The notes under the pieces: generated by a model
What the model was told of the DNA's origin: nothing
Databases searched by the model: none
Seen by the model: the letters and a program-made list of their open reading frames with translations, nothing else
Translations under genes and position numbers: made by a program
Assembly (NCBI GenBank): GCA_963977205.1
Contig: CAXBOF010000001.1
Span: forward strand, 1-42,124
DNA from: an uncultured Phycisphaera sp.
GTDB taxonomy: Bacteria; Planctomycetota; Phycisphaerae; Phycisphaerales; UBA1924
Direction of reading: 5' to 3'
DNA length: 42,124 nt
Shown here: positions 2,023-41,304 of the stretch, piece after piece
Numbering within the stretch: position 1 is the stretch's first letter
Layout: every line of letters begins with the position of its first letter

Positions 2023-2028
2023 CTTATA
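2023..2028 (-). promoter_or_regulatory. TATA box (TATAAG)
   Basis: 33 nt upstream of minus-strand ATG 1989. Confidence 0.5.
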
Positions 2029-2068
2029 TGCTGCCCAGAGCTAGCTGGGGCGGTGGGGTCCGGGGCAC

Positions 2069-2074
2069 TATAAG
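2069..2074 (+). promoter_or_regulatory. TATA box (TATAAG)
   Basis: 26 nt upstream of ATG 2101. Confidence 0.5.
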
Positions 2075-2100
2075 CGCCGAAATCGGGATTTCAAAAGGAC

Positions 2101-2787
2101 ATGGACCCGAACGATCACGTTTTCGATGCTGGCGGTGCTGCAGATGCGCCGCCCGAGCTGTTTCCGCTGTACACCACGTCTGGGTCTGTGACGGACCGGT
2201 CCGAGAATCTGTCGTGCTCCTCCAGCTCGTCCTTCTGCTACCTGTGCTCGTTTGCGGGCGAGACGGGCATGTCGGTGGACATTCGGGCGCACATCCGGGA
2301 CCTCTCGAAGCGCGGGTTTGAGCTTCCGGCCATTGCGCGGGCCGTGGCCAAAATCTACAAGCGCGACATCCAGCCGCACGTCGAGCATGCCCGAATGGAC
2401 GGCACGGTGCGGTCCCCGATTTGCAGTCTGCCCCCGAGTCTCACCCTGCCCCCAGACGGTCCAGTCGCCCGAGTGGTCGATCGAGGCGATTCACCGCCAC
2501 CTCAGCATGGGCGGCGAGTTTTCCGAGACGGTGTTTCAGGTGCGGTCGGTGCGCTTCCCCGACTCTGGGCGCCGTGCTGACGCTGCCTGCAGGATTCGGT
2601 GGTCAAGAACATCTTCACGCACCTGATTGTGCGACTCAACCAGCGCGTGCTGACTGCAGACGGCCATGTGGACGAGGGCGCACGAAAGGCTCTCCTGGAC
2701 ACCATCGGCGAGCAGACCAAGTGGCGGCGGTCGATGGAGGTTGGGGATTCGGGGCCGGGGGCGGGCACCAAGCGCAAGAAGAAGTAG
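2101..2787 (+). CDS. Hypothetical protein with basic C-terminal tail, 3 exons join(2101..2406,2456..2539,2593..2787), 231 aa
   Basis: The coding signal moves frame 1 -> 2 -> 1 across two GTGCGG..CAG introns, all junctions phase 0. C-terminus GAGTKRKKK is NLS-like. TATAAG lies 26 nt upstream of ATG 2101. Confidence 0.7.
2407..2455 (+). other. Intron, 49 nt
   Basis: GTGCGG...CTCACcctgcccCCAG, phase 0, frame 1 -> 2. Confidence 0.7.
2540..2592 (+). other. Intron, 53 nt
   Basis: GTGCGG...CTGACgctgcctgCAG, phase 0, frame 2 -> 1. Confidence 0.8.
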
Positions 2788-2829
2788 CGAAAGTACCCGA
2801 GTGTTTTGAAACCAAGGGCGCGTGCCGCT

Positions 2830-3117
2830 CTACTCTGCTGGCAGGAACGATTGCACCGGCCCTGCATTGGCGACCAAGAACTGGATGTCGGCCCGCTTGA
2901 CCGTCTTGCCCCGCCGGTGCTCGACCAGCGCCATCAGCTTTGTCACCAGATCCTTCACCTCGGTCTTGTACAGATCCGACACCCGACCCGACACGTTTCG
3001 GGCTGCCCGCCCTTGCCCAGTACGATAGACCATCTTCAGCCCCGCCGCACAGCTCATCTTAACCTCGCCTGGCGTCTTTGCGCGCCGCACCGAATCAGTC
3101 ACTGCCGTTTTCGCCAT
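2830..3117 (-). CDS. Histone-fold protein (H4/H3-like singlet), 95 aa
   Basis: ...NVSGRVSDLYKTEVKDLVTKLMALVEHRRGKTVKRADIQFLV aligns by eye with the histone fold (H4 ...[20 protein letters not shown]; H3 ...HAKRVTIMPKDIQLA, recalled from memory). N-terminal basic tail. TATAAG lies 33 nt upstream. Confidence 0.7.
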   Translation of the reverse strand: MAKTAVTDSVRRAKTPGEVKMSCAAGLKMVYRTGQGRAARNVSGRVSDLYKTEVKDLVTKLMALVEHRRGKTVKRADIQFLVANAGPVQSFLPAE

Positions 3118-3150
3118 CCTTGTCCTGTTTGAGCTTCCTTCGGTGTCCGG

Positions 3151-3156
3151 CTTATA
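3151..3156 (-). promoter_or_regulatory. TATA box (TATAAG) of histone-fold gene
   Basis: 33 nt upstream of minus-strand ATG 3117, inside a 49-nt intergenic spacer. Confidence 0.55.
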
Positions 3157-3166
3157 CGCCAGCCCC

Positions 3167-3824: not shown

Positions 3825-3831
3825 ATATATA
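3825..3831. promoter_or_regulatory. Bidirectional TATA element (ATATATA)
   Basis: 28 nt from minus-strand ATG 3796 and 26 nt from plus-strand ATG 3858. Confidence 0.45.
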
Positions 3832-6722: not shown

Positions 6723-6728
6723 TATAAA
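6723..6728 (+). promoter_or_regulatory. TATA box (TATAAA)
   Basis: 30 nt upstream of ATG 6759. Confidence 0.45.
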
Positions 6729-6758
6729 TTGAATGTTTCCGGCACCATAACTCGCGAG

Positions 6759-7603: not shown

Positions 7604-7609
7604 TATAAG
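7604..7609 (+). promoter_or_regulatory. TATA box (TATAAG) of D5-like gene
   Basis: 51 nt upstream of ATG 7661, the longest spacing in the set. Confidence 0.45.
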
Positions 7610-7660
7610 AGCCGCAGCTTGAGTGAAACACTTTCAAATCGGGCACAACCCGGCCCGCCG

Positions 7661-11330: not shown

Positions 11331-11336
11331 TATAAC
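11331..11336 (+). promoter_or_regulatory. TATA box (TATAAC)
   Basis: 28 nt upstream of ATG 11365, 5 nt after the D5-like stop codon. Confidence 0.45.
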
Positions 11337-11364
11337 CGCACCCCATTCCCACTTCAGTTGACCC

Positions 11365-11872
11365 ATGGTGCTGGTTCCCTTTGTTGCGACTTTGCTGGCC
11401 TGCGCCGACCACAGCTCCATCCATGTCACGCGCAGGGCGTGTGCATTCGGTGTCTTCCTCTGGCGCCGCTCTGCACGTCGGGTGCTGATGCCGCCGCGCA
11501 GGTTCGTACCAAATGTTCCAGGCCAGTGTAGAGGCCGCCGTGGACGCCCTCGGATGCGGTCCTCAGTGCATGTCGTGCAATGCGGCGAGTGTCGATGACT
11601 GCACACGGTTCGCCATCCTGGCGGCCTACGCGGAAGAGGCGGGCGACCCGGCGATGGACAGGCTGCACCTCGCCCTCGCCACCTGCGTTCTTCCAAACGG
11701 CGCCACCGTTCCAGCGGCCGACATTCTGCGCCAGATCAAAGACGAGCCCGAGATGCCGTGCTCCAACTCGTCCGACGTCTCGGGCGACTCGATGGCCGCG
11801 GCCGTCACGCTCATCGGGTTTTCGCTCTTTGTGCTCATCAACACGGTCCTGTCGCTCGAAGAAAGTCAGTGA
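11365..11872 (+). CDS. Small Cys-rich type I membrane protein, join(11365..11440,11502..11872), 148 aa
   Basis: Exon 1 is a signal peptide (MVLVPFVATLLACA), 28 nt after TATAAC. A 61-nt GTGCAT..CTGAT..CAG intron joins it in phase 1 to the frame with CGPQCMSCNAASVDDC and C-terminal TM AAAVTLIGFSLFVLINTVL. Alternative: unspliced start at ATG 11513. Confidence 0.55.
11441..11501 (+). other. Intron, 61 nt
   Basis: GTGCAT...CTGATgccgccgcgCAG, phase 1. Joins the signal-peptide exon to the Cys-rich exon. Confidence 0.5.
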
Positions 11873-11897: not shown

Positions 11898-11903
11898 TAT
11901 AAT
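11898..11903 (+). promoter_or_regulatory. TATA box (TATAAT)
   Basis: 29 nt upstream of ATG 11933. Confidence 0.4.
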
Positions 11904-11932
11904 GGACTGCAGGCTGTGCAATTTAAACTGAT

Positions 11933-14289: not shown

Positions 14290-15847
14290 CGCAGGCGTTC
14301 CGGTCGGAGCAGCCGCCACATCGCCAACCGTACTCGGTGGCCGTGGCGGCGTCCCGATTAGCCTGCGCTGAACCCACGGAACATCGCGCCATCTACCAGA
14401 CCCCCCTATGGCGCATCGACGACGACATCAACCCCCGGGCCACCCTCTACGACTGTGCCATTCGCCTCCACGCAAGGGCGTCCCATGTGCCCAAATCACT
14501 CCTCCCCGAGCTCAGCCTTCTCATCGACGCCACGCTCGCAACGTGCGTCTGGATCGACTCGGGCTCGGGTCGCAACCGGATCGACGCCATCTACTCTGCA
14601 GGTCCGCTCCGCCCGTCCCCACGCAGCCCAGATCCCACTGACCCGCGCACACAGGTATGGCGCCAGAGCAGGTCGATCCAGCCACGCTCCACGGCTACTT
14701 CTCGGGCACACTGGAGCACACCAGCATCATCGCCGGAGCCATTTCGGGCGTCGGTCCGCCAAAAGGCCTTCGTGAAACGTGGCAGCTCATCCAAAAAGCC
14801 ATGTGCCCAGACACCAAATCAGTCAGGTACGTAGGCGACCTCTGTGCCAAGTCCATCGAGCAGCACGAGCTCATGGGCCGCATCGTGACGACCGTCGTGC
14901 ACGGGGGCCTTCCGGGCTCCGGCCATCTGGCGCATCCGCAGTTCCGCATCGACAACTGGGGGCGGCCGAGCGACATTGCGGCCCTCGTCGTCCGGCGGCT
15001 GACCAAACGCGGCATCCTGCTCGCCGTCTGCGAATTCGTTGCCAACATTCCCTGCCATGTCACCAGGGCCATCGTGCCAGTGACATTCACCGGGAGCGTG
15101 GCGGCCGCCGTTTTTTCCCCGCGGTCGCGGGCTGCAAAGCTGGTCGCCACTCCGCGCGAAGCCCTCCGGATCGACACACCCCTGTCTCTTGGGACTCCCG
15201 TGCCGATCCTGGCAAAGGCAGATCCTCAAGAGGCCGCCGATGCCTTTGTGCGAATGGCCACTCCGTTCAGCACAGCAGCCCCGCGGAACGCCATCGAGAT
15301 GGCCGCCCTCCAACTCGCCGCCGCTCGCTCCAGGAGCATGAGGATCTGGACCGCGCACTCGTCGGTCCGGAAGTACCAGATGGATCGATTCGGCGAAATT
15401 CTCGTTCCGCTCTGTCTGGCGTGTCGCACCCTCCTGGTGCCGACGGGCAGCCGCAGCAAGACGCGCCGAGTGGCTCCCATCATGGTTGGAGGAGGCTCCC
15501 TCGTTTGCTCGGGGTGCAACTCGCGCTCCATCGCCAGAATCAACATGGCGGGCCTCGTGGCGCGCATCGACCGCGGTGGCAAAGAGGACGTCCTGTGCCC
15601 GTGCAGCGAGTGCGGCGTCCTTGGACCCATCGGAGGCGTCAGGGGACTGCTGCCGTACTGCGCCCGCCATGCGGCCGTCGAGGACATTGAACCCCAGGCG
15701 CACTGTGCCATTTGCCGCAGTCGCATACATGGGGACGGCGTCAAGTACGTCGAAGTCGCCTCAAAGCGGTACGAGTGCATCTGCTCGGCATGCCAAACAG
15801 TGTTTCCGGCGCGTGCTGCCCCGTCCCGCCCGATGCGCATCCACTGA
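14283..15847 (+). CDS. Hypothetical zinc-ribbon-rich protein, join(14283..14601,14655..15847), 503 aa
   Basis: ATG 14283 overlaps the upstream stop. A 53-nt GTCCGC..ACTGAC..CAG intron (phase 1) joins frame 0 to frame 2. The C-terminal third has CxxC pairs (CLAC, CSGC, CPCSEC, CAIC, CSAC). Confidence 0.7.
14602..14654 (+). other. Intron, 53 nt
   Basis: GTCCGC...ACTGACccgcgcacaCAG, phase 1, frame 0 -> 2. Confidence 0.75.
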
Positions 15848-15867
15848 CCGTCTGCACAGGCGATGAG

Positions 15868-16353
15868 ATGGACGGAGGCCGAATTCAGAGCGCTTCGTCG
15901 GTAGAGGAGCAGAGCGCGTCCCTCCGCACCTACGTCAAGGACGTTTGGACGTGCAAGGGCGTGGCCATCCAGGCGACCGGCCGTCGCTGCTTCACGGTGC
16001 GTCCCCCGCATCGCACCCCGCCCGCCCCGGCTGACTGTGGCAACAGGTGGCGCTGCCCCAGGTGACTTTAATCCGGAACCCGGCCCGACACCAGGCACCA
16101 CTGACCCGCGCCGCAGGAGATGCAGAACTTTGACGAGTTCGTGGCCGGGATCCGCATCCGGGGCGGTGCCGTGGACCTGGCGCTCTCCACCGACAGCATG
16201 CGCTGCACCATCTGGTGCGCCAACGCCATGCCCAAGCGCGAGGGGCCCGCCGAGCCAGCCCCTGCCCCAGCAACCGGGACGCCCCTGATGGCCGTGGCCG
16301 CCGTCGGACTGGCCGGCGTAGCATTTGCGGCGGCACAGCTGCTGCACGTATAA
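15868..16353 (+). CDS. Small tail-anchored protein, join(15868..15996,16047..16061,16117..16353), 126 aa
   Basis: Three exons, all phase 0, including a 15-nt micro-exon (VALPQ). Both introns have a GTG donor, a CTGAC branch motif and a CAG acceptor. C-terminal TM LMAVAAVGLAGVAFAAAQLL. Confidence 0.6.
15997..16046 (+). other. Intron, 50 nt
   Basis: GTGCGT...CTGACtgtggcaaCAG, phase 0. Confidence 0.7.
16062..16116 (+). other. Intron, 55 nt (follows a 15-nt micro-exon)
   Basis: GTGACT...ACTGACccgcgccgCAG, phase 0. Confidence 0.7.
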
Positions 16354-16354
16354 C
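16349..16354 (+). promoter_or_regulatory. TATA box (TATAAC) overlapping the upstream stop codon
   Basis: 28 nt upstream of ATG 16383. Contains the TAA stop (16351..16353) of the preceding gene. Confidence 0.4.
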
Positions 16355-16382
16355 CGAGCGGTTCCACTCATTACACCAGACC

Positions 16383-16754
16383 ATGCGTTTTGCAGACGCG
16401 TCCCTGTGGGCGCTGGCCACCCTGGTGGTTGCCATCTTTTCCCTCTTTGATGCAGTCCGGACCCGCAGCTACGCAGACGCCTCGTTCGTCATGACGGCCT
16501 CGCTGCTGTACTTCAACGCCGTCTGGATCGGCACGACGTACCTCGGCATCGGGGCGACCTCCTCCGGGGGAATCCGAAACCTGAGATCCCTCCTCTTTGT
16601 TTCCATTTTTATTGGGCTCGTCTCGTGGTACAAAACCGATATCCGGCTGGCCATAACCTCTGTGGCCGGCCTCGTCCTTTCGTGGGCGTTTGGCGCGCGC
16701 TCGCCCCCAGTCCTCCTCATCGTGAGCCAGTCGGTCGGCGCTCTCGTTCGATGA
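16383..16754 (+). CDS. Four-helix membrane protein, 123 aa
   Basis: ATG lies 28 nt after TATAAC 16349..16354. Hydrophobic helices (LWALATLVVAIFSLF, FVMTASLLYFNAVWIG, LLFVSIFIGLVSW, ITSVAGLVLSWAF). The stop overlaps the next ATG (ATGA). Confidence 0.7.
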   Translation: MRFADASLWALATLVVAIFSLFDAVRTRSYADASFVMTASLLYFNAVWIGTTYLGIGATSSGGIRNLRSLLFVSIFIGLVSWYKTDIRLAITSVAGLVLSWAFGARSPPVLLIVSQSVGALVR

Positions 16755-18641: not shown

Positions 18642-18672
18642 TGCACCACCATAAGAGGCTATGTCTTCCGTC

Positions 18673-18678
18673 GATATA
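18673..18678 (-). promoter_or_regulatory. TATA box (TATATC on minus strand)
   Basis: 31 nt upstream of minus-strand ATG 18641. Confidence 0.4.
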
Positions 18679-18691: not shown

Positions 18692-19835
18692 ATGCACATT
18701 TCGGGCCGGTGGTGCAACCCAGGCTCTCCCGGATTCGGCCTCGATGCCAAAGACGTCAATGGAGTCGCCTCTCGGCTCGTCGGTTCGTGTCCGCTTCCGC
18801 AATGGCCGCGCCGACCGCACTCACCGCGCCGACCGCAGGCAGGCCGCTCACCTACGAGCACACGGGCATCATCGAGGCCGCAGAGAATGCCCTCACCGCC
18901 ACAGGGGACATCAGGGCGGCCGACGTCGAGGCCCGGCTCGCAGCCAACACGGGCGCAGCGGCGCCCATCGGAAAGGTGGTGGCGGCCGATCGGCACGGGC
19001 GGTATCCGCTCCCCGCACACGCACGCCCGTTAGAGCCCGTTCTGATCCCGCCCGGAAGGTTTGTGGCCGCAATCGACGAGGGACTGCCCATGACGGCCGA
19101 GGCGGTTCGACAGCGGTACTTCGCCGTCAGCCTCACTCATGTGGGCGCCTCGAAGGAGCCGCTCGAGCTCAGCCTCACGACAGACCCCGCACGGCGGGAC
19201 GCATGGATCAAGGCGCACTATAAGGGCCAGTCGACGCGGCTGTCACAGCTCCAACAGCTCCTTAAGATGGCCGACGAATCCGCCCCTGCCCCCAGCCCCC
19301 TCGAGGCTGCGCTCGCCTCGATCACCGACCCCGAGCAGCGTGCTGCCATCGAGGCACAGCTTCGGGCGTACGAGAGCAAGTTTACGTCGCACGAGGACAA
19401 GATTGCCGAGCTGTCGAAGCACGCGAGTACGGACGAGGAGATTGTGAGGCAGCTTGCCGCCGGGCTCGTCGCGCAGTTCCAGGACCAGGCCGCCCCCCTC
19501 GGGCACGCCGACCCGGACCAGGTTGCCCCCCGCCCGCCTCGCATCCCCGACCCGGTTTAATGTGCCCGCAAATCCAGGTGATGAAGAGCCCTTTTGCGAT
19601 GCGCCAGCTTCTCGAGGTGTGCAGCCGGGGCTTTGCCGACCGCCGGGCCGCCGCATCCGGCGCTGGGGCCGCCATGGAGGTGTCGACGCCCGCACCGGTC
19701 GCAGTGCCCGAGGTGCCCGCCATTGCCGAGTCGTCGACGTCCGCCGAGGAGCCCCCGACTAAACGGGCCCGCGGTCGCAATGGTGTCAGCTCGGAGGACG
19801 CCCTGCTCCGCGCCTTTCAGCGCCGCTTCGATTAA
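18692..19835 (+). CDS. Assemblin-like maturation protease fused to scaffold (tentative), join(18692..18782,18839..19521,19578..19835), 343 aa
   Basis: The spliced N-terminus gives ...ASRLVGRPLTYEHTG (cf herpesvirus assemblin PLNINHD, catalytic His). RYFAVSLTHVGASKEP matches YLPSVSLATKRLGGEA (catalytic Ser). LELSLTTDPARR matches FAHVALCAIGRR. The C-terminal half is coiled-coil-like, and the proposed last exon ends in the amphipathic SSEDALLRAFQRRFD. All comparisons are from memory. Unspliced alternative end: 19560. Confidence 0.5.
18783..18838 (+). other. Intron, 56 nt (protease-scaffold gene)
   Basis: GTTCGT...CTCACcgcgccgaccgCAG, phase 1, frame 2 -> 1. Creates the RPLTYEH context. Confidence 0.5.
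19522..19577 (+). other. Intron, 56 nt (protease-scaffold gene, tentative)
   Basis: GTTGCC...TTAATgtgcccgcaaatcCAG, phase 0. Bypasses stop 19558..19560 and appends an 85-aa C-terminal exon. Confidence 0.4.
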
Positions 19836-21461: not shown

Positions 21462-21468
21462 TATATAT
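21462..21468. promoter_or_regulatory. Bidirectional TATA element (TATATAT)
   Basis: The only AT-rich element in the 69-nt divergent spacer. 26 nt from plus-strand ATG 21495 and 36 nt from minus-strand ATG 21425. Confidence 0.55.
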
Positions 21469-21494
21469 GCCGCGATATCTAGAGGCACTCGGGC

Positions 21495-28912: not shown

Positions 28913-29801
28913 CTACCCAAAGAGGAACCACGCCAGTGCGAGTACTCCGGCCGAGACTGCGAAAAACTCGAATGCCGTGTACATGAGGTCCTTGGAGGCT
29001 CCGGTGTCGGTGACGCCCTCGTAAAAGCGCGTCTCGTACGCCCGGCCAAAGAGCCCGCCCGTGTACCGGTCCACGGAAAACACGGTGCCCGCATCGCCCG
29101 TTGGGGCCTTGGCGTCCTGGTACACGGCAATGGTTTCCGACCCATTGGCCACCCACTCGTCCTCGCAGGCGGCGACTGCAACAAGCGAGTTTACGGCACT
29201 CAGGCCGGCGCACCGCACGCTGAGCCGATCCACGGGGGGGATGATGACGGCGTACGCGCCCCGGACGTTGACGAGCTCGAGGCCGACGCCCACCAGTGGT
29301 CCGAATTCACCGACGCGCACGTTCTCGATGTGCACATTGGGCCCCGTCACCTGCGGTGGATCAGTACCGCGGCTGTACGGGTGCGGCGTGTGCGCGGAAC
29401 TGCCGTCATGTTCTGCACGGTACACTTGTTCGTTCCGATGAGCCACGAGCCCGTCGCCAGCGTCACGTTCACCATGGCTCCGTCGCACCAGTACTCTTTT
29501 GACCCAAGCGTATCCGTGACCGAATCTCCGTCGCCTGTGGGCCCGTCGGTCAGCACGAGGCGCACAGTCCCGAGTCCGCGTGCCCACCGTATGTGATGCC
29601 GGTCGATGCGTTTGCGACCGTTATGGCCACAAAGCTGTCGGGTGCCACGGCCACAATGTCGGTCGTGTCGACGCATCCGCGCCCCCCGGGGACTGCAGGC
29701 GGCCTGCACGTTCCATCCCAGAAGCAGACGCTGGTGGCAAGGCTGACGACGATTGTACCGACCCCCGGACTCACCGAAGTTGTGCATTCGGGAAACCGCA
29801 T
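28913..29801 (-). CDS. Type I membrane glycoprotein, complement(join(28913..29350,29401..29534,29588..29801)), 261 aa
   Basis: Three minus-strand frames are joined in phase by 53-nt (GTGGGC..CTGAC..CAG) and 50-nt (GTTCCG..CTGAT..CAG) introns. Sequons NAS, NVT, NMT, NGS. C-terminal TM FFAVSAGVLALAWFLF. ATG lies 28 nt from the shared TATA at 29830..29836. Confidence 0.7.
29351..29400 (-). other. Intron, 50 nt (minus strand)
   Basis: Minus-strand GTTCCG...CTGATccaccgCAG, phase 0. Confidence 0.75.
29535..29587 (-). other. Intron, 53 nt (minus strand)
   Basis: Minus-strand GTGGGC...CTGACcgacgggcccaCAG, phase 1. Confidence 0.75.
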
Positions 29802-29829: not shown

Positions 29830-29836
29830 ATATATC
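29830..29836. promoter_or_regulatory. Bidirectional TATA element (ATATATC)
   Basis: 28 nt from minus-strand ATG 29801 and 18 nt from plus-strand ATG 29855 (kinase). Confidence 0.5.
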
Positions 29837-29854: not shown

Positions 29855-30937
29855 ATGGACTCGGGCACAGACTCGGACAGTTCGGCCGGGATGGTCGCGC
29901 CGTCTGGATGGCAGGATCTTGTCCAGATCGCGCCCGGGGTACACGCGGCCACCGGGCGGGACGGCAGAAGGGTGGTCATCAAGGCGTTTTTGCCCGATCA
30001 CGACTACCGAGATGCAAACCTGGCGGCCGCGGGCATTGGGGCGCTACTCTTGCCGGACCAGGGCAAATTCGATCCGAACACAGTTGTGCCAAATCTAGTC
30101 TTTACGGGCAGGGAACCTCGCCAGTACCCTCCCTGCAAAAGGCTCGGCACCAGCGGACTCGTGTACTGCGATGCCGAGCTGACTGACGAAGGAGTTGCAC
30201 TTCCAAACACTCGGAGGCGATCCGTCGTCGACGACGATACTGGCACGGAGTACGTCCCCAAAGCAATTCGCGTGCTCCCACTGCACACCCGTGACATTTC
30301 AGTCATCTCAGAGTGCCTGGAACAGTGCCGACTGCTCAAGCCGGGGAGCGAGGATGTCACGATTGTTTTTGAGTGGCTGTGCGACCTGGCCGAGACGCTC
30401 TCCGATTATGGGGTGCATCTGACCGACCTCAAGGCGGACAACATGGTCTGCACTCGGCCGGCGGGGAAGCTGCAGCCAAAGCTGATTGACTGGGATCAGG
30501 TTGTGCACTATGGCATTGGCGGGGACTACAGGCGCGAGGAGCCGCGTTCGTGCACCACCTTCTTCAACTACGTGCACCTGATGCTGGCGAATGACCCCGA
30601 CCGGCTCCACACGCTGCTAGAGTGCGGGGCGGCGCGGACGGTGTACGAGGCGGGACTCGCGACGCTCAAGTTAGTATTCGACCCATCGGGCCGCGCCTCT
30701 CCGGAACACCCGCCGGTGGCCAAGGCATACCTGCCCCTCGAGGCGCTGACGACTGCCAACATTGCCATGTGCGACCCTCGGCCGCCCACCGTCCGGCCTG
30801 CGCTGACCGCCGACCGCAGGTACGCGATACAGTACGGATGGAACCTGCCGCCCGAATTTGGAAACCTCGACATGGAGTACACGTGGGCGTGGGTCGCAGT
30901 AGATCCGACGTTTGCAGCTGCACCCATGGCGCTATAA
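29855..30937 (+). CDS. Protein kinase-like protein, 360 aa
   Basis: RVVIKAF (VAIK-like Lys), VHLTDLKADNMV (HxDxKxxN catalytic loop), KLIDWDQ (DFG-position). Start moved to ATG 29855, downstream of the TATA at 29830..29836. Confidence 0.75.
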   Translation: MDSGTDSDSSAGMVAPSGWQDLVQIAPGVHAATGRDGRRVVIKAFLPDHDYRDANLAAAGIGALLLPDQGKFDPNTVVPNLVFTGREPRQYPPCKRLGTSGLVYCDAELTDEGVALPNTRRRSVVDDDTGTEYVPKAIRVLPLHTRDISVISECLEQCRLLKPGSEDVTIVFEWLCDLAETLSDYGVHLTDLKADNMVCTRPAGKLQPKLIDWDQVVHYGIGGDYRREEPRSCTTFFNYVHLMLANDPDRLHTLLECGAARTVYEAGLATLKLVFDPSGRASPEHPPVAKAYLPLEALTTANIAMCDPRPPTVRPALTADRRYAIQYGWNLPPEFGNLDMEYTWAWVAVDPTFAAAPMAL

Positions 30938-31109
30938 GGATTAGACACGCCAGTGCCAACCGCGCGCCCTCTATGGATGATGCAACAGAGTGCAATCTGC
31001 TGTGCAGAGCGCTTGCGCGATGGGCGTGGGTCACAGTAGATCCGACGTTTGCAGCTGCACCCATGGCGCTATAAGGATTAGACACGCCAGTGCCAACCGC
31101 GCACCCTCT
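30884..31109. repeat. 89-bp direct duplication of the kinase gene 3' end plus downstream sequence
   Basis: 30884..30972 and 31021..31109 differ at 2 positions. The spacer is 48 nt. Confidence 0.9.
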
Positions 31110-31141
31110 GTGAAACAGGGCAGAAGCATCCCCGCTTTCAG

Positions 31142-32448
31142 ATGGAAAAGAAGACGTACATCATCTCATGGAACGCCATCGCGGCGGCGATCCACTTTGG
31201 CGTCGCAGGATTCGTAATCTCGGAGGTCGCCGGCGGCGCTTTCCGGGTGCCAGTGCATCCGCTGACGCTCGCTCCAGGTGTACCAGCATCCGTGGGAGGC
31301 CCCCTTTGTCGTCCAGTATTCCCAGTGGAATCAGACGGGCGATGAGCGGTGCTCGGCCGAATCCCAGTGCCTCATCGCGCAAGCCTCGGTGCGCAAAACG
31401 CGTCTGCCAGGGCGCGCCCGTCCTGACTGGACCACTTCCGCAGATTGACTGGGGCACGGCCAATGTCGGCATGATCGTGGGTCGGATGCCCTGCCGCCAG
31501 CCCGCCCGCCCTGACGCGCTGCAGGTGCCATTCTTCAGCGTCATCTCCGGGGCCCATCATGCCGCCGTCGCCGTGTGGGTCGGTTGGGAGGGGGTCGATG
31601 CCTACCTCAAAATGGCCAAACGGGGCAACTGGCTGCGGGCAGTTGACTATGCACTCTCGTCGTCCCTGATGCTCGTCGTCACATCCATCCTGTTTCGGTC
31701 GCCGCCCGACGTGCCAACCCTGATGCTCGTGGCTGCAGTCCAGAGCGCCATCATCCTCATCGGGTACCTCCTCGAACGACTCCAGTACCGCCAGACCACT
31801 ACGGAGGAAAGGCAACCGCTTTTATCGGGCCAGGGAGACGACATCTCTACAGTGGACACTGCTGCGATTCAAGGCGATTTGACCGCGGATACGACGTCCG
31901 GGAAGCAGGCCTTTGGCGTGTGGATCCCGTTTGCGGCGTCGATGCTGATTTACGCTTTGGTGTGGACCAGCCTCCTGATCCCTTTTCACTACGCGGTGGA
32001 AGATGCGCCGACGGCGGTGGTGATTTTCATTGCGAGTCTTGCGGCACCCGGTGCGCGGCGAGGTCTGACTGTGGCCGCTGCAGGTCTACCTGGTGGCGAC
32101 GTTCACGCTCTTCCCGATCGTGTTTGTGTTTGGGGCGCCGGGACTGGGTCGCGAGACGGGCTTTCTGATTCTGAGCATGCTTGCCAAGGTGGGCAGTCCT
32201 GTGGCGGCACTGCGGCGACATTGCACGCTGACCGCGGCGCCCAGGTTCCGCTTCTGATGCTCTTTTACTTTGGGATTGTGGCGCGGTCGGGGACGGTTGT
32301 GTTCGAACGGCTGGAGGGTGCATTCAACACGACCGGCTCGTCCTCGTCCGCCAGCGACACCGAACTGTACATCGCGTTCGGCGCCTCTATTGCCGTCGTG
32401 ACCATCGTGGCCATCCTGATGTGGGGGACCAGGCCGAACCGAAAGTAG
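31142..32448 (+). CDS. Heliorhodopsin, 6 exons join(31142..31225,31278..31388,31444..31476,31525..32040,32084..32188,32245..32448), about 350 aa
   Basis: The spliced product aligns by eye with heliorhodopsin 48C12 (recalled from memory). AIHFGVAG matches GVFHLLQ. SGAHHAAV matches SALFHFIV. NWLRAVDYALSSSLMLVV matches NIFRWVEYSLSSSVMIVL, with Asp at the counterion position. RETGFLILSMLAK matches GERAYIVLSLVAK, the Schiff-base Lys (codon 32186..32188). That lysine exon is in a different frame from the long track ORF. The junction at 32017..32083 is unresolved. Confidence 0.85.
31226..31277 (+). other. Heliorhodopsin intron 1, 52 nt
   Basis: GTCGCC...CTGACgctcgctcCAG, phase 0, frame 2 -> 0. Confidence 0.7.
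31389..31443 (+). other. Heliorhodopsin intron 2, 55 nt
   Basis: GTGCGC...CTGACtggaccacttccgCAG, phase 0, frame 0 -> 1. Confidence 0.75.
31477..31524 (+). other. Heliorhodopsin intron 3, 48 nt, in-frame and retainable
   Basis: GTGGGT...CTGACgcgctgCAG, phase 0. Removal deletes VGRMPCRQPARPDALQ and gives VGMIVPFFSVISGAHH, which aligns with the heliorhodopsin TM2 region. Confidence 0.65.
32041..32083 (+). other. Heliorhodopsin intron 4, donor unresolved (GC-AG 43 nt shown; GT donors at 32017 or 32020 are alternatives)
   Basis: Acceptor CTGACtgtggccgctgCAG at 32083 is required to enter the frame encoding the lysine exon. Only phase-0 donors work. The consensus-looking GTGCGC at 32051 is out of phase. 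Confidence 0.3.
32189..32244 (+). other. Heliorhodopsin intron 5, 56 nt
   Basis: AAG|GTGGGC...CTGACcgcggcgccCAG, phase 0, immediately after the Schiff-base Lys codon. Returns to frame 1. Confidence 0.85.
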
Positions 32449-32587
32449 CCAACGACACCCTAACCACGACACTGGTTGCGCACGATGTTCGCATTGCCAC
32501 GACCGCCGAGTCGAGGGCAGAGGCGCGCTCGTTTGGGCGGCGTAGCAGTAAAGGTACATCCACGGCCGGTGGCGCCCTGTGCCGACT

Positions 32588-33532
32588 CTACCGCACCAGC
32601 ACTCCTGCGTCCTCGAGCATCCGCTGAAACTCGTGCGGGTACGGGATCTGCGTCATGCCCTGGAGTTCGTCGACCAGACGGCACGCGGGGGCCACTCGGC
32701 GGATCACCTCTGCACAGTCGGCTCCCAAGGGATACGGCCCAAGGCTGTACGAGCACGGCTTTGCGCTGCCGCACGCCACGCAGATTGCCTTGCACGCGTA
32801 GGGCGCCTGCTCGACAGTGTACTCTGCAACCATGCGCCGCAGCTCCTCGACTTGTTCCGGAGTCTTGGGCGGACCTCGGTGCAGCGGACCGTCCAACTGC
32901 GCCCGGCATACGGCGGGCACCGCTTCGGCAATGCCGTGTTCTCGCACGGCCTCAAGGTACTCGGCCCAGTGCGGGCTCAATCTCAGCACCGTGAGCGACG
33001 AACTACCGTCGACCATAGTCTCCCAGTTCAGCCCCACAATCATCCGCCAGAGCAGCGCTGCGGCGCGACGGTCCAACGCAGTCGCCGTTTCCAGCGAGAC
33101 GTGCGTGTTGGTGACCAAAAAGCCGTTCCTCCGCTCGTCCGGCCGGCCCGCGGTGGGCTCGAGGAGCAGGCCCGCCCCAGGGGACAACCCAGACGGCTCC
33201 CTGATGACCAGCGCAAAGCTCGCCGAGATCTTGCCCGCGTCGCCATCCTGCACGGGCACGCACACCATGTGCCCAGCCTTGGTATCCTCAAACTCGGGAG
33301 CGTCCGCTTCGCCCCCAGGCTCGGTCCTGGCCATCGTCTCGGCGCTGCACACTGACGAACCCGTGTCGGTGTCGGTCGAAACGCCGCCCTCGTCCTCGGA
33401 GCTGGACGTCTCCGATTCAGACTCTGACGATTCAGGCTCTGACGAGTCGCACCGCTTGAACTTCCGGCGTCCATCGCCGCTCTTGGCCTTCCTCTTGAGC
33501 GTCCGGCGGCGCTGTTCACAGAGTGGCGGCAT
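32588..33532 (-). CDS. Hypothetical nuclear protein, 314 aa
   Basis: Start at ATG 33532 (MPPLCEQRRRTLKRKAKSGDGRRKFKR, NLS-like), followed by an acidic Ser-rich tract (SSEPESSESESETSSSEDE) and a globular C-terminal region. The rest of the 561-aa track ORF is antisense to the RING gene. Confidence 0.65.
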   Translation of the reverse strand: MPPLCEQRRRTLKRKAKSGDGRRKFKRCDSSEPESSESESETSSSEDEGGVSTDTDTGSSVCSAETMARTEPGGEADAPEFEDTKAGHMVCVPVQDGDAGKISASFALVIREPSGLSPGAGLLLEPTAGRPDERRNGFLVTNTHVSLETATALDRRAAALLWRMIVGLNWETMVDGSSSLTVLRLSPHWAEYLEAVREHGIAEAVPAVCRAQLDGPLHRGPPKTPEQVEELRRMVAEYTVEQAPYACKAICVACGSAKPCSYSLGPYPLGADCAEVIRRVAPACRLVDELQGMTQIPYPHEFQRMLEDAGVLVR

Positions 33533-33712
33533 GCAGAATTGTGACCCGGTTCGATTTCTGGGTTCACGATGCGGATTCGCGGTCTTCTGCAAACCGGGCA
33601 CAGCAGCCCGATCGTCCGGTCCCGCCCTAAGGTCGGCGCAATCCTGGCGAATGTCCAAAACCGGCCCAGATGTCAAATCTGGAATTCGAACCCGCCACAA
33701 TTTCAGTCTGCC

Positions 33713-34438
33713 ATGGAAGTAACCCCGCAGATGCTGTTCGAGGAGTCTGGCCTTGACGAGGGACAGCACGGCCCCCTGCTGCCGGCGCGGTGCAAGAGGA
33801 GCGCTTCCGAGTTCGATGCCGAGGCCGAACCCGAAGGGGGTGCTGCTGCCGAGGTCGGGACCGACGTGTACACGAACCGGGTCATCGCCGAGGTCGAGAC
33901 GGACTCTCCAGAGACGACGCTTGACCGGCGAATGGAGCAGCTTGCCGCTGCCGACGCGCAGCACGCAGCAGAGGCACACAAGAATCTTGACGAAGAGCAC
34001 ACGGAGCGGAGGAGGGCCGCTCATAAGGGACTGGACAAGGACCTGCTGGTGATTGCGCAGAGTCCTGGGCCGGAGATGAGCGGCAGGCTGCAGAAGCGGA
34101 TCCGGGAGGCTGACGAAGAGGAGCGAGAGGACGATCGGAAGCTGGCCATCGGAAAGGCCGCCATTGCCCATGCGCAGGGACGGATGCCGGATTGGCCCAC
34201 CGTGGCGAACCTTTTGCGCTGCCCCGTGCTCATGCAGAACACGGCGGATCCGGTCAGGCTCACATGCGGGCATACGGTGGACAGGGGCGTCGCTCGAGAG
34301 CTGTACGCCGCGTCGGAGGGGGTCTTTCCGTGCCCCGTCTGCAGGACGCCGAACAAAAGGCCAATCGCAAAGACGGGCGCCCGGAGGGATCCGCTGCTCG
34401 CGAGGCTGGTACGGGCGCTGGTGGGGAATGCGGTGTAG
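33713..34438 (+). CDS. U-box/RING-like E3 ligase-type protein, 241 aa
   Basis: C-terminal LLRCPVLMQNTADPVRLTCGHTVDRGVARELYAASEGVFPCPVCRTP carries the CP..M.DPV...CGHT U-box/SP-RING-type signature ending in CPxC. The N-terminal half is acidic and coiled-coil-like. Confidence 0.7.
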   Translation: MEVTPQMLFEESGLDEGQHGPLLPARCKRSASEFDAEAEPEGGAAAEVGTDVYTNRVIAEVETDSPETTLDRRMEQLAAADAQHAAEAHKNLDEEHTERRRAAHKGLDKDLLVIAQSPGPEMSGRLQKRIREADEEEREDDRKLAIGKAAIAHAQGRMPDWPTVANLLRCPVLMQNTADPVRLTCGHTVDRGVARELYAASEGVFPCPVCRTPNKRPIAKTGARRDPLLARLVRALVGNAV

Positions 34439-34479
34439 ACGCGCAGTGTAAAGGTTTGCTCGGGCGCCGCCGGGCAGGG

Positions 34480-34559
34480 TTCGTCGGCAGATGGCTCGAC
34501 ACTGGCACCAAGAATTATTTTATTCGATTCGTTGGCAGATGGCTCGACACTTGCACCAA
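34480..34559. repeat. Two 32-nt direct repeats flanking an AT-rich core in a convergent intergenic region
   Basis: TTCGTCGGCAGATGGCTCGACACTGGCACCAA at 34480..34511 and TTCGTTGGCAGATGGCTCGACACTTGCACCAA at 34528..34559. Between them lies GAATTATTTTATTCGA. Confidence 0.85.
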
Positions 34560-34581
34560 TCGGGCTGGCGCCACGGTATAA

Positions 34582-35940
34582 TCAGTCCGTCTCTACGACG
34601 GCGGTGATGCCGGGCCCGACTGTAAAGAGCTCGCGCCTGGTGGCACGCTGGGCGGCGACGAGGAAGTGCGTCTTCCGGATGCTTCCGTTTCCGACGACGT
34701 GAACGCCTGCTGGGGCCGTCATGCCCTGAGCCATGTCGATGGTGAAGCCGCCTGTGGGAGTTTAGCGGGCGCGCGCCCACATCCGCGCGGGCCTGGAAAT
34801 ACCGTGCCGGATGGGAACCACAAAGTGGCCTTCGAGCTCGAGGGGCTGCAGCGACACCTCTTCGCCAGTGCTGAGGATCGTGACGACGACGATGGCGTTT
34901 TCACCCATGACGACCGAGTCGGCCTCGATCTCTTCGCCGTCCTCGGAGATGACGCGCTCAAATCGGATGTCAGTCCCGTTGGTGAGCAGCGTCCCCCTTT
35001 CGGTGGCCCTGGCCTTGGTGTCAATGTCGACGCAGCCGTAGACGAGCCAGCCCTTGGTGTGGCCGCCCACAAAGCGCCCATCTTCGGCGTCCTTGCCGCG
35101 CTCCTTGGGGATGGTTTCGGGGTCGCTGGGGAGCAGCAGGATGCCCTCTCTGTCATTCTCGCGGAACTGCCGCACTGCTTCCCGCACATCCTCCCTGATC
35201 TGCCCGAGGATCAGAGCCCCCTCTGGCGGAACGGCAGCCCGACGCTGCCGGACAAGCTGATCCGCCAGCCCGCCCGGGATTTGCCATTCCTGGAGCTCGC
35301 TGAGGACGCGCTTCCAGTCGGGGTCCGTGTACCGCCGCGACTCTTTCAGCTCGATCGGGGGCGCCCTGCGCAGCAGAGGATGCGTGGATGCGGGCTTTCC
35401 ACCCCTCGGCTTGATCTGGCCCTCGTCGCCCACAAACAGGACGCGGACGCCGCCAAACGGCATCGACCTCGCCCGAAAGGTGCACCTCAGGATGGCATCC
35501 AGCTTGGCAATCTCGGCCGATGTCCACAGGCCAAACTCTTCGACGACAAGGATCTTTGGCGTCCCGGCGGGCGTATTGTACCACGGCTTTGATTTGGCAG
35601 TGCCGAGGGGAACCTTTGCCCACCATTTGGCGTCGATGGCGATCTTGGCCCACACGACGGCTTCTGGTGGGTAGCTGCCCCGCGGAACGGCGAGCCCGGC
35701 AATCGTCTGCCGGTGCTGCCCCAGCGACTTGTGGCTGATGGCAGTCACCATCACGCGGCAGCCGGCGTTTACCCAGCATCTGAGGACGTCTGCCACGACG
35801 ACGGACTTGCCAGTTCCGGCTTTCCCTATGAGCAGCACAACGCGGTGCGCCTCGAATAAGTCGCCGATCTGATCCGCTGCGGCCCTTTGCTCGCCCGACA
35901 GCACGGGGGGAGCCTGCGGAGTGGATTCGCGCCCGTCCAT
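34582..35940 (-). CDS. Pif1/RecD-like SF1 helicase, complement(join(34582..34751,34803..35940)), 435 aa
   Basis: Walker A LLIGKAGTGKSVV, motif II KILVVEEFG, MPFGGVRVLFVGDEGQIKP. Removing a 51-nt GTATTT..CTAAAC..CAG intron (phase 1) adds GFTIDMAQGMT...HFLVAAQRATRRELFTV, the C-terminal conserved motifs of this helicase type. Confidence 0.85.
34752..34802 (-). other. Intron, 51 nt (SF1 helicase gene, minus strand)
   Basis: Minus-strand GTATTT...CTAAACtcccaCAG, phase 1. Removes stop 34762..34764 and restores the helicase C-terminal motifs. Confidence 0.85.
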
Positions 35941-36093
35941 GTGCTCTGGCGGGGGAGACGCTTCAGCCGACGCGGGAAATTCTGGGCCCTCTGGATGTGA
36001 AAACTGCCAGGTAGCAGGCTTTTGATTTCAGAAACTGTGCATACATGCGGGCCTGCAAAAGTGTCAGAACTGCAGAGGCGCCGCGGCCGTCGT

Positions 36094-36447
36094 TTAGGGC
36101 ACCTGCGCTGCCCCCGTCTTTGGAGTGTCCTTCTTGACCTCGACGACGACCGAGTGCCCGGGCACGGCGATTAGCAGGTCTGCCCGCCCGGTTCCACAAT
36201 GGACGGGTCCATCAGCGCCGATCGGGGTGTACATGATGGGACAGGGCGCCTCGCGGGTCACCGAGACTCCGGGGAGCATGTGGCGGACCTCGGCGGCAAG
36301 GGCGGTGGAGATCCACTCTTCCCGGCAGGGGTAATCCTTGAAGGCGCGGGCGACGCGCCAGGCGCTGGCCTTGACGGCCCACTCGACGCGGGCAATCCAC
36401 GCATCAGTTCCTTCGTGCCCGCCCCGACCGAGTCCTGCCGCCGCCAT
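36094..36447 (-). CDS. PD-(D/E)XK (VRR-NUC-like) nuclease, 117 aa
   Basis: ...GTGRADLLIAVPGHSVVVEVKKD is a D..(n)..E.K nuclease-core pattern. I start at ATG 36447 (MAAAGLG...), 36 nt downstream of a TATAAT. The upstream part of the 420-aa track ORF is Arg-rich shadow sequence. Confidence 0.5.
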   Translation of the reverse strand: MAAAGLGRGGHEGTDAWIARVEWAVKASAWRVARAFKDYPCREEWISTALAAEVRHMLPGVSVTREAPCPIMYTPIGADGPVHCGTGRADLLIAVPGHSVVVEVKKDTPKTGAAQVP

Positions 36448-36483
36448 GGTCGCTTCGTCGTGCAGGAGGAACCCCCGGGTCAT

Positions 36484-36489
36484 TATAAT
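36484..36489. promoter_or_regulatory. TATA element (TATAAT, near-palindromic TTATAA)
   Basis: 36 nt from minus-strand ATG 36447 and 87 nt from plus-strand ATG 36577. Confidence 0.4.
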
Positions 36490-39787: not shown

Positions 39788-39797
39788 GGTGCCCAGT

Positions 39798-40079
39798 TTA
39801 ATTTGAGCGCCCCCCGGGCTTATAGCCAACCACCTCAGAGGCTGCCCGGTGCCCGGAAGCAATGTGCCGGTTCAGGGTGCCCTTGCGGAAAAAGAGTCGA
39901 CCGCAGATGTGGCACTGGAACTGCGGCGGATGGTGGTACACGACGTGCCCGTCGGACGTGGGGTTGTGGCAGATGGAGCACAGGGGGCCCTCAACGGGTG
40001 TATCGAACTCCAACAAGGAGCGCCAGCTGGGTGAGGAGCGCACCGGCAAACAGCGTGGGTGCTGCACACCGTCCGACAT
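39798..40079 (-). CDS. C2H2 zinc-finger ORF, 93 aa (separate small gene or alternative 3' exon of the upstream gene)
   Basis: FQCHICGRLFFRKGTLNRHIASGH is a canonical C2H2 finger, preceded by CSICHNPTSDGH. The ATG at 40079 overlaps the 3' end of the 39991..40524 gene in another frame. The stop lies 10 nt before the next ATG. Confidence 0.4.
   Translation of the reverse strand: MSDGVQHPRCLPVRSSPSWRSLLEFDTPVEGPLCSICHNPTSDGHVVYHHPPQFQCHICGRLFFRKGTLNRHIASGHRAASEVVGYKPGGRSN
39819..39824 (-). promoter_or_regulatory. TATA box (TATAAG) inside the upstream zinc-finger ORF
   Basis: 31 nt upstream of minus-strand ATG 39787. Confidence 0.5.
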
Positions 40080-40524
40080 CCACCTGCGAAGCGGAAAGGG
40101 TGTTTTCGTTGGCGAATCCCTGCAGCCGGAGCGCATATACCACCGAGACGACAACGCCCGCCGATGCAGACACTGCCGCAGCCGTGCGTGCCTCAGTTCG
40201 AAAGGCGTCAAACGCCGAGATGCACACGGCGACGGGCACGAGGGCCGTTGTGCCAATGGCGGCGACTGCGTACGCCTGCAGCCACGGCTCCCAGTCCGAG
40301 ACGGCCACCAGGCACGTGCCAGCCCCGCCTGTGGCTTCCAGCTGCTCTGCGATAAAGGAGTTGTATCCCTTTCCCATTGGGACGTCCACCGAGCGCGCGC
40401 CCGTGCACACCACCGTGAGGGCGGGGCAGTGATCGTCCAGCGTCACCCATGCTGGGATTCCGGCAGCCAAAAGCCCAAGTGCCAACAGCCCCACCGACGT
40501 CCGTGTATCACGGTGTAAACCCAT
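39991..40524 (-). CDS. Four-helix membrane protein, 177 aa
   Basis: ATG ORF. Hydrophobic helices SVGLLALGLLAAGIPAWV, AYAVAAIGTTALVPVAVCISAF, AAAVSASAGVVVSVVYAL, APTLFAGALLTQLALLVGV. The 5' end overlaps the divergent 40449 gene by 76 nt. Confidence 0.65.
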   Translation of the reverse strand: MGLHRDTRTSVGLLALGLLAAGIPAWVTLDDHCPALTVVCTGARSVDVPMGKGYNSFIAEQLEATGGAGTCLVAVSDWEPWLQAYAVAAIGTTALVPVAVCISAFDAFRTEARTAAAVSASAGVVVSVVYALRLQGFANENTLSASQVDVGRCAAPTLFAGALLTQLALLVGVRYTR

Positions 40525-41273
40525 GGGGCGTGCTGACTGTAGAGGCGCTGGACGCGAATCTGCCGTATCCGTGGCGCGTGGCGGTGTCCGGGGGGCCCTC
40601 GCCGCTTAAAGTGCACGGGCGCGGGCTTTATACCGACGACGCCGAGCTCCAGCGGTGGATCGAGACGCGGGCGATTCCGGCGATTGCGCACATCAACCGG
40701 GCTTTCGATGGCACGGATGCCAGTCCGCGTCGCGAGGCGATGGCCGAGGAGATTGTGGGGGCCCTGGGGTTTCTGGACCCGACCGAGGTTCCTGCGGCGG
40801 CCGTGGAGCACGTGGCGGTGGCGACGCCCGAGTACCGAGAGCGGCTGGTGGGGGCGCTGTACTTTATCTTTGCGTACAACGTGCCCGAAGAGTTTGTGGA
40901 GCACCGGGCGGGGGCGCTGGCGGCTGCACTGGAGCGTCCGCCGTTTGACGGTCCCCGGGATGACCACAGTCCGGTGTTCCAGGCGGCGTCGGCGATGGCC
41001 GTCCAGTACGCGCGGCGGCACCACCGGATGCCGTGGACTGTGCCGACCGACGGGAGCCGATGCACGGACCGGGTCGAGGCGATGGCGATGTGTATCCGAC
41101 TGGCGCGACTGTGCGCGTGGGCCGATGTGGCCACCGAGCTGGAGACGGAGGCGGCGCCGTGGGAGGAGGAGATGGCCGCGCGACCCGCCATCACGGACAG
41201 CCGGGCCAAGAGCGCCATCGCGCAGTGGCTCTCCGAGTGCAAACGTAGCCACCCCCCAGCCCTCAACATCTAA
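40449..41273 (+). CDS. Hypothetical protein, 274 aa
   Basis: High-GC3 ORF (…LQRWIETRAIPAIAHINRAFDG…LVGALYFIFAYNVPEEFVEH…). The start is uncertain: ATG 40449 is the only in-frame ATG near the 5' end and overlaps the divergent gene. Confidence 0.6.
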   Translation: MLGFRQPKAQVPTAPPTSVYHGVNPWGVLTVEALDANLPYPWRVAVSGGPSPLKVHGRGLYTDDAELQRWIETRAIPAIAHINRAFDGTDASPRREAMAEEIVGALGFLDPTEVPAAAVEHVAVATPEYRERLVGALYFIFAYNVPEEFVEHRAGALAAALERPPFDGPRDDHSPVFQAASAMAVQYARRHHRMPWTVPTDGSRCTDRVEAMAMCIRLARLCAWADVATELETEAAPWEEEMAARPAITDSRAKSAIAQWLSECKRSHPPALNI

Positions 41274-41298
41274 ACGCCGGCCCCAACCACCAGCCCCG

Positions 41299-41304
41299 TA
41301 TATG
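41299..41304 (+). promoter_or_regulatory. TATA box (TATATG)
   Basis: 35 nt upstream of ATG 41340. Confidence 0.45.

Follow-up and report, generated by a model that had tools for sequence, protein, structure and literature searches.

Herpesvirus genes are transcribed from RNA polymerase II promoters that combine a TATA box with an initiator, and the late TATT boxes of beta- and gammaherpesviruses are read by a viral protein that resembles the TATA-binding protein (TBP). Nuclear nucleocytoviruses (the proposed "Ariadnavirales" and "Manovirales") have also been described, and their genomes are reported to be free of signs of intron invasion. Medusavirus relies on a 24-nt palindrome, GCCATRTGAVKTCATRTGGYSRSG, located 40-70 nt upstream, together with a poly-A motif and without a TATA box (PMC8557863). 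The intron-rich mirusviruses, which make up the putative orders Okeanovirales and Styxvirales, are marine, reach GC contents of 72%, and have Pfam hits for only about 13% of their genes (PMC12768974). Heliorhodopsin and TBP are among their core genes, their introns are of the GT-AG type with CYSAC/CTGAC branch sites, and they are predicted to be nuclear (PMC12768974, PMC10132985). The mirusvirus literature that was searched does not mention a TATA box as a promoter element and does not describe viral promoters. The present analysis concerns a set of TATA-type hexamers found shortly upstream of start codons in a 42,124-nt stretch of DNA, here called the window (contig CAXBOF010000001.1, positions 1 to 42,124, of the uncultured Phycisphaera sp. 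assembly GCA_963977205.1).

There is good reason to consider it likely that these hexamers are TBP-type TATA core promoters of a GC-rich, intron-rich genome resembling that of a large DNA virus, which would be transcribed and spliced in the nucleus. The element is ordinary in kind, and it is apparently undescribed for this virus group. Less commonly combined are the predicted very short leaders in a eukaryotic system, the use of single symmetric boxes by two divergent genes at about ±34 nt, and the preservation of this layout across differences in intron content.

TATA-type boxes and their distance to start codons

The motif TATAWR was counted on both strands of the window, which has a G+C content of 64%, and the expectation was taken from 100 dinucleotide-preserving shuffles. 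It occurs 21 times versus 3.27 expected, and none of the 100 shuffles reaches 21. An ATG that opens an open reading frame (ORF) of at least 80 aa lies 24-42 nt downstream of 18 of the 31 TATAWN sites, compared with 9.3% of all positions (p ~2e-11). In a test that is free of any gene model, the first ATG falls 30-43 nt downstream at 14 of 29 sites versus a background of 13% (p 5e-6). When hexamers upstream of starts are compared, strong enrichment is seen only for TATA-type sequences, in a start set that was itself partly chosen by TATA.

The hexamers reside where the initial annotation had placed them, and its distance of 26-36 nt from the start codon holds when measured from the hexamer end. 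Its tally of fifteen genes with a box can be refined, because the boxes are real but number 16 and serve approximately 19 starts. Similarly, its five occurrences of TATAAG are correct for the plus strand, and both strands together give 8. The boxes are listed below, with distances measured from the first T to the ATG.

2021..2028, minus strand: TATAAGAA box, 39 nt before ATG 1989; gene 1989..489 with two predicted exons
2069..2076, plus strand: TATAAGCG box, 32 nt before ATG 2101
3149..3156, minus strand: TATAAGCC box, 39 nt before ATG 3117; 8 nt past the stop codon of the upstream ORF
3825..3831, unstranded: shared palindromic ATATATA, 35 nt from ATG 3796 (minus) and 32 nt from ATG 3858 (plus); ATGs 61 nt apart
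6723..6730, plus strand: TATAAATT box, 36 nt before ATG 6759
7604..7611, plus strand: TATAAGAG box, 57 nt before ATG 7661
11331..11338, plus strand: TATAACCG box, 34 nt before ATG 11365; short first exon, intron 11441-11501, then ORF 11513-11872
11898..11905, plus strand: TATAATGG box, 35 nt before ATG 11933; gene doubtful
16349..16356, plus strand: TATAACCG box, overlapping the upstream TAA stop; 34 nt before ATG 16383
18671..18678, minus strand: TATATCGA box, 37 nt before ATG 18641; TATATG in L001
21462..21468, unstranded: shared palindromic TATATAT, 42 nt from ATG 21425 (minus) and 33 nt from ATG 21495 (plus); ATGs 69 nt apart
29830..29836, unstranded: shared ATATATC, 33 nt from ATG 29801 (minus) and 24 nt from ATG 29855 (plus); ATGs 53 nt apart
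31070..31077, plus strand: TATAAGGA box of the heliorhodopsin gene, 72 nt before the true ATG 31142; duplicate copy at 30933-30940
36480..36487, minus strand: TATAATGA box with palindromic core ATTATAAT at 36482-36489; 40 nt before ATG 36447 of a nuclease-like/PIF1-helicase gene
39817..39824, minus strand: TATAAGCC box, 37 nt before ATG 39787; in reverse orientation, 43 nt from ATG 39862 (plus)
41299..41306, plus strand: TATATGCA box, 41 nt before ATG 41340; gene extends past the window end

The distance from the first T of the box to the ATG is mostly within 24-42 nt (32, 32, 33, 33, 34, 34, 35, 35, 36, 37, 37, 39, 39, 40, 41 and 42 nt). Relative to the TATA(A/T)A(A/T)(A/G) consensus, most boxes match at only 5-6 of the 8 positions, with TATAAGCC serving as an example. 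Asymmetric boxes in tandem gene contexts point in the sense direction in 7 of 7 cases by our own count, the boxes common to divergent pairs are symmetric or palindromic, and the boxes at 2028 and 2069 stand back to back, 41 nt apart, in a divergent pair that has two oriented boxes. The three boxes common to divergent ATGs (53, 61 and 69 nt apart) sit midway between the two starts and are as originally described.

A second positional signal lies downstream of the boxes. Counting from the first T, an A is present at +26 in 13 of 19 window promoters (p 4e-6), and in 7 of 10 promoters from two related contigs, L015 and L020, none of which was used to find the signal (p 9e-4). This A frequently resides in an initiator-like CA or TCAAA context, and it is a probable initiator. 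If transcription starts there, most 5' untranslated regions (UTRs) should be about 6-16 nt long, and the almost leaderless mRNAs proposed earlier are also predicted by the position of the boxes. Upstream of the window ATGs there is no Shine-Dalgarno sequence, and the ATG context, (G)N(C/A)(C/G)ATGG, is weakly Kozak-like.

Homologues come only from marine metagenomes, where they sit on contigs as long as 145 kb; the sources include the Tara 0.1-0.22 um fraction. Syntenic relatives were found at ~92-99% DNA identity (L005, L007-L009 and L015) and at ~70% (L001-L004 and L006/L014), together with a more distant one, L020, that has a GC content of 59% and proteins 30-37% identical to those of the window. 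Two AT-richer relatives, L021 and L022 (GC 55% and 47%), were dropped as uninformative because TATA-like strings are common there by chance.

Across these relatives, the box is kept at 6 of 7 orthologous promoters while the flanking spacer diverges. The shared box at 21462 reads TATATA in every lineage examined (L005, L001, L006/L014 and L020), and the rest of its spacer varies. The 29830 box is kept for the minus-strand gene in L001 and L006 and corresponds to a shared TATATA in L020. Boxes are likewise retained in relatives for the genes starting at 29801, 18641 and 36447 and for the heliorhodopsin gene, the last of these at 36 nt (L001), 38 nt (L006) and 26 nt (L020) from its ATG. The 36480 box persists as TATAAC or TATATT in L005, L001 and L006, and the TATAAG before ATG 7661 is kept at 57-59 nt in L011 and L012, where the protein is only 50% identical. 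Orthologue N-termini agree with the shortened gene starts 36447, 39787 and 18641 that had been suggested with the boxes as a guide, and likewise with starts 21425 and 29801.

The arrangement is also preserved on a larger scale. Gene order in L020 is as in the window: a minus-strand gene, a shared TATATA, a 2140-aa plus-strand gene, a 256-aa minus-strand gene, a second shared TATATA, a plus-strand gene, and a TATAAA followed by the heliorhodopsin gene. The shared boxes of L020 lie 34/34 and 42/34 nt from their ATGs. In addition, the box rule correctly pointed to three further gene starts in the 9 kb of L015 that extend past the right end of the window, where three TATAAG boxes each stand before an ORF-opening ATG.

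L015, outside the window: TATAAGAG, 36 nt before the ATG of an 865-aa ORF
L015, outside the window: TATAAGGA, 35 nt before the ATG of an 899-aa ORF
L015, outside the window: TATAAGGC, 47 nt before the ATG of a 125-aa ORF

The hexamers exceed the expected number, keep a fixed position and orientation relative to genes, and persist from lineage to lineage. In these respects they behave like TATA-box core promoters and would likely act as such, as originally proposed.

Three conserved or repeated sequence blocks adjoin the boxes. Between the shared TATATAT and ATG 21495, the ATCTAGAGGCAC block (21477-21488) extends to the predicted start site; its sequence does not vary among the window, L005, L001 and L014, but L020 lacks it. 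A 24-nt intergenic block, ATGCACATTTCGGGCCGGTGGTGC (18692-18715), precedes the 18678 box on one side and, by ~90 nt, the box-less ATG 18802 on the other, and it matches L001 (~70% DNA identity) except at one R (A/G) site. Through a 92-nt direct repeat (30884-30975 and 31021-31112; 97% identity at a spacing of 137 nt), the 3' end of gene 29855-30937 and the TATAAGG box both occur twice, and the heliorhodopsin gene therefore has two tandem boxes. L015 also carries the repeat, and L005 has one copy of the unit.

Introns and revised gene models

The window is rich in short spliceosomal introns of 45-60 nt, with a peak near 50 nt, GT-AG boundaries (one is GC-AG) and a CTGAC branch site. Many of the apparent stop codons of ORFs are the TGA of a CTGAC branch site that is followed by YAG and, across the junction, G, or else the TGA or TAA of a GTGAGA or GTGTAA donor. 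An initial gene model that took ORFs as genes, using third-position GC (GC3) and codon scores, was abandoned once the introns were recognized. Its replacement chains exons by a dynamic programme, which over-joins neighboring genes if long introns are allowed. The genes for which spliced structures matter most here are the following.

31142..32448, plus strand: heliorhodopsin gene with 5 introns of 45-56 nt; true start is ATG 31142, not the ORF-track start
31226-31277, 31389-31443, 31480-31524, 32032-32083 (GC-AG) and 32189-32244, plus strand: heliorhodopsin introns, identified against L019
21495..28869, plus strand: giant gene of at least 7 exons with the single box 21462; ORFs 22378, 24870 and 26806 are exons
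34582..36447, minus strand: helicase gene with introns 36102-36053, 35971-35914 (which contains the ORF-track ATG 35940) and 34802-34752

The unspliced heliorhodopsin ORF matches only the middle of the Pfam model (58-156), and the remaining helices are in other frames. When relatives are aligned at this gene, conserved exons are seen with interposed short segments of the form GT...CTGAC...CAG that vary in length and are weakly conserved. Splicing out the introns extends the Pfam match from 58-156 to 3-156. A database search with the spliced protein led to P0034, which is encoded on the 981-nt Joint Genome Institute (JGI) contig L019. This contig is collinear with the window but lacks the five introns, and is thus a spliced, cDNA-like copy.

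For the giant gene, the 2140-aa ORF of L020, which has no introns, can be aligned collinearly with 21546-28854 as seven blocks that switch frame, and the junctions between blocks fall at or within a few bases of predicted introns. Thus, 21495-28869 is one gene behind the single 21462 box. Its product of ~2,100-2,300 aa is cysteine-rich and carries many N-glycosylation motifs and a C-terminal membrane anchor. HMMER searches align ORF 26806-28869 to the C-terminal third of ~2,000-2,200-aa proteins, and only 23 relatives of this last exon were recovered from 1.84 billion representative proteins, indicating that the clade is small. Within the gene, a 58-nt block (25187-25244) shares 95% identity with L001 and 89% with L014, in an exon region where identity is otherwise ~69%. 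The neighboring 256-aa gene of L020 aligns to window positions 29801..28922 in three exons.

In the helicase gene, introns 36102-36053 and 35971-35914 have conserved GT/AG boundaries and divergent interiors in L001 and L014, and the spliced frame is open. Its exon 1 (36447-36105) includes a DLLIA...VVVEVKK stretch that, by eye only, resembles a PD-(D/E)xK nuclease motif. ARAGORN also calls a 97-nt tRNA-Ala(CGC) on the minus strand at 36292-36388, but this candidate lies within the conserved first coding exon and has no Rfam tRNA match, and it is probably a false positive.

Other ORFs can be joined in the same manner. ORF 16751-18265 forms the second exon of a gene whose ATG, 16383, stands behind TATAACCG; the intron that separates the two exons (16722-16768) has a GTGAGC donor and an in-frame exon join, and the coding phase inferred from substitutions agrees. 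ORFs 14283, 14657 and 16120 are probably exons of one gene. Relative to L009 (92% identical), three frame-breaking indels lie in ORF-covered DNA, all of them in the predicted introns 14602-14654, 15813-15859 and 15997-16046. The remaining three frame-breaking indels are in spacers, and every multiple-of-three indel is in an exon. Segment 19915-20963, within the 3' half of the minus-strand gene 21425-19905, differs even between the window and L005 (94% identical). Two contigs, L008 and L009, stop near 19910-19915, and this segment may be a hypervariable region that breaks assemblies.

The introns also bear on whether the window has more than one kind of promoter. The initial annotation had listed genes without a TATA box and proposed two promoter or temporal classes. 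Some of its examples indeed have no box (13597, 33532 and 33713), but 35940 lies within an intron, 16751 is an exon 2, and 14283 is probably an exon. As argued, the two classes rest largely on ORFs that are exons or on an intronic ATG; in that form the proposal lacks support, and it is mostly an artefact of unrecognized introns. The starts that truly have no TATA are 13543/13597, 18802, 33532/33713 and 37873, and a second promoter class that rests on these is possible. A CACAATT motif occurs 11-17 nt before each of ATG 33532 and ATG 33713, and the same motif is found at several box-less starts of L020. Counted as CACAAYY/CACAAYT at 11-17 nt before TATA-less ATGs, the motif reaches significance only in L020 (8/21; p 0.003), with 6/24 in the window (p 0.21). 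CACAATT may be the initiator of a second promoter type. The divergent, TATA-less ORF pair with ATG 33532 (minus) and ATG 33713 (plus) is carried by a ~2.1-kb segment (32450-34590) that is missing from L001 and L014.

How the boxes might be read

In the proposed mechanism, TBP, either from the host or the virus, would bind TATA(A/T)(A/G), and transcription by a pre-initiation complex would then begin ~26 nt beyond the first T, where an A-rich, initiator-like position is found. The resulting mRNA would have a 5' UTR of ~6-16 nt, and its first ATG would be used in a mildly Kozak-like context. Asymmetric boxes such as TATAAG and TATAAC would set the direction toward their own gene, whereas a symmetric TATATA midway between divergent ATGs 53-70 nt apart would serve both genes. 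We infer TBP binding, the exact start sites, the bidirectional use of one box and the polymerase recruited from the sequence. Because the introns are spliceosomal, expression is expected in a eukaryotic nucleus.

Several observations weigh against this interpretation of the boxes. Only ~19-21 of the ~28 modelled gene starts have a box, and ~7 have none. The exon-chaining gene model behind these counts is heuristic outside of the regions checked against relatives, and the number of boxes per gene is approximate. Two distances to the ATG, 57 and 72 nt, are outliers. Some TATAWN sites lie within coding sequence (19219, 38791/38794, 4704 and 34577), and the 39824 box is missing in L001. For cap-dependent scanning as it operates in most eukaryotes, the predicted 6-16 nt UTRs are short. 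Furthermore, the cDNA-like L019 is truncated at its 5' end, inside exon 1.

A more ambitious version of the same interpretation is speculative and should be considered doubtful. It holds that a viral TBP, the product of a mirusvirus core gene to which no target has been assigned, reads TATAAG and TATATA as a virus-specific code, that initiation at +26 yields near-leaderless capped mRNAs, that two opposed complexes form on each TATATA such that one element of 6-7 bp drives both divergent genes, and that this architecture predates the intron invasion that separates the lineage of the window from the intron-poor L020.

An alternative is that the boxes are read not by host RNA polymerase II but by a virus-encoded multisubunit RNA polymerase that works with a TBP-like factor of the virus, as in cytoplasmic nucleocytoviruses or in mirusviruses with polymerase genes. 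Compact promoters near the ATG, along with short 5' UTRs, characterize large DNA viruses equipped with a polymerase of their own, which would suit the geometry seen here. TBP is common in mirusviruses, and one major order also encodes an RNA polymerase (PMC10132985, PMC12768974). However, the many canonical spliceosomal introns imply nuclear transcripts, the published intron-rich mirusvirus orders are without RNA polymerase genes, and no polymerase or transcription-factor gene was seen in the window and its flanks, which amount to ~60 kb of a genome with related contigs as long as 145 kb. The splicing and the published lack of polymerase genes in intron-rich mirusviruses favor the host enzyme, and a viral polymerase seems improbable.

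The hexamers could also be left over from the composition of AT-richer intergenic DNA, or they could signal 3' ends or polyadenylation for the genes that precede them. Boxes do overlap or abut an upstream stop codon at 16349, 30933, 11331 and 3156 (and at 12765 in L015), and at 16351-16353, 30935-30937 and 12767-12769 of L015 the TATA box of the following gene contains the TAA stop of the preceding one. Moreover, the spacers are so short that any spacer element adjoins an ATG. Yet boxes also occupy divergent spacers that contain no gene end, they point to the gene that follows, and their distance is constant with respect to the ATG and not to the stop codon. The exact hexamer is conserved where the remaining spacer diverges, and 21 copies are observed versus 3.3 in shuffles. 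Such an origin is therefore very unlikely.

The same overlaps have a consequence for transcript ends under the TATA-promoter interpretation. With a tandem box that overlaps or directly adjoins the stop codon of the gene before it, transcripts of that gene would have to end within the next one, and these transcripts may be nested and 3'-coterminal, as in herpesviruses. No hairpin terminators were found in the window and no T-runs at its gene ends, and AATAAA is rare (8 copies), with a loose association with convergent junctions.

An archaeal or archaeal-virus genome, with TATA/BRE (B recognition element) promoters ~26-30 nt before leaderless mRNAs as in GC-rich haloarchaea, can be dismissed almost entirely: the TATA ~30 nt before the ATG, the lack of a Shine-Dalgarno sequence and the 64% GC do give a haloarchaeal leaderless look, but most genes are split by GT-AG introns with CTGAC branch points, of which the cDNA-like L019 is a spliced-out example, there are no T-run terminators, the flank upstream of the boxes is G+C-rich rather than BRE-like and purine-rich, and collections of bacterial, archaeal and viral sequences gave no match except a helicase. 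The spliceosomal introns by themselves exclude it.

If the boxes are TATA promoters, they mark true first exons and can anchor gene models in DNA where prokaryote-style ORF calling misleads because most ORFs are exons. They would also offer a concrete DNA target for a mirusvirus-encoded TBP, and from them one would expect a eukaryotic virus to have exceptionally short 5' UTRs, along with bidirectional promoters built on one box.

Comparison with described viruses and promoters

Database searches reveal little about the affiliation of this genome. Pfam and PHROGs matches of the long window ORFs are limited to an ankyrin repeat, a phage tail-collar domain, heliorhodopsin and a PIF1/AAA_30 helicase, the last being the only PHROGs match. 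No relative of the window was found among 185,579 bacterial and archaeal species genomes (GTDB scan), in a phage and archaeal-virus DNA collection, or in an IMG/VR scan. An Rfam scan of the window gave no match, PDB sequence searches with four large ORFs gave no meaningful match, and Pfam recognized no domain in the spliced large proteins or in the four homologues of the giant protein that were tested. Among candidates with known hallmark genes, no herpesvirus-like protein was recognized in the window, and the window gave no Pfam matches to the double jelly-roll capsid, packaging ATPase or polymerases of Nucleocytoviricota. The HK97 capsid, portal, terminase and triplex proteins of mirusviruses were not recognized in the large ORFs of the window and flanks (~60 kb) by Pfam, PHROGs or PDB sequence searches, which cannot detect them. 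Neither TBP nor histones were seen in the ~60 kb of window plus flanks, and heliorhodopsin is present. A viral TBP, as a mirusvirus core gene, would be the natural reader of the boxes.

The balance tips slightly toward the window being part of an intron-rich mirusvirus. Like members of that group, it is marine-derived and GC-rich, encodes a heliorhodopsin, has GT-AG introns with CTGAC branch sites, and yields few Pfam matches. Unlike the ~80-nt introns of those viruses, its introns peak near 50 nt, and their density looks higher.

The promoter layout can be compared with three better-known arrangements. Herpesviruses are likewise large DNA viruses of the nucleus whose individual genes have a TATA-type box ~25-30 nt before the start site, which in the window is a predicted one; tandem genes are tightly packed, and a viral TATA-binding factor might be involved. 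Herpesviruses differ in that the window has predicted UTRs of ~6-16 nt, shared symmetric boxes, dense introns of 45-60 nt and rare AATAAA. The archaeal TATA/BRE leaderless promoters similarly place a TATA ~26-30 nt before a first transcribed base near the start codon and are found in short divergent spacers, whereas the window has spliceosomal introns and lacks a purine-rich BRE flank. Medusavirus provides a parallel of another type, since its genome is also GC-rich and its motifs also occur at a preferred distance before the ATG and are enriched between divergent genes; in place of the medusavirus palindrome, however, the element in the window is a TATA box.

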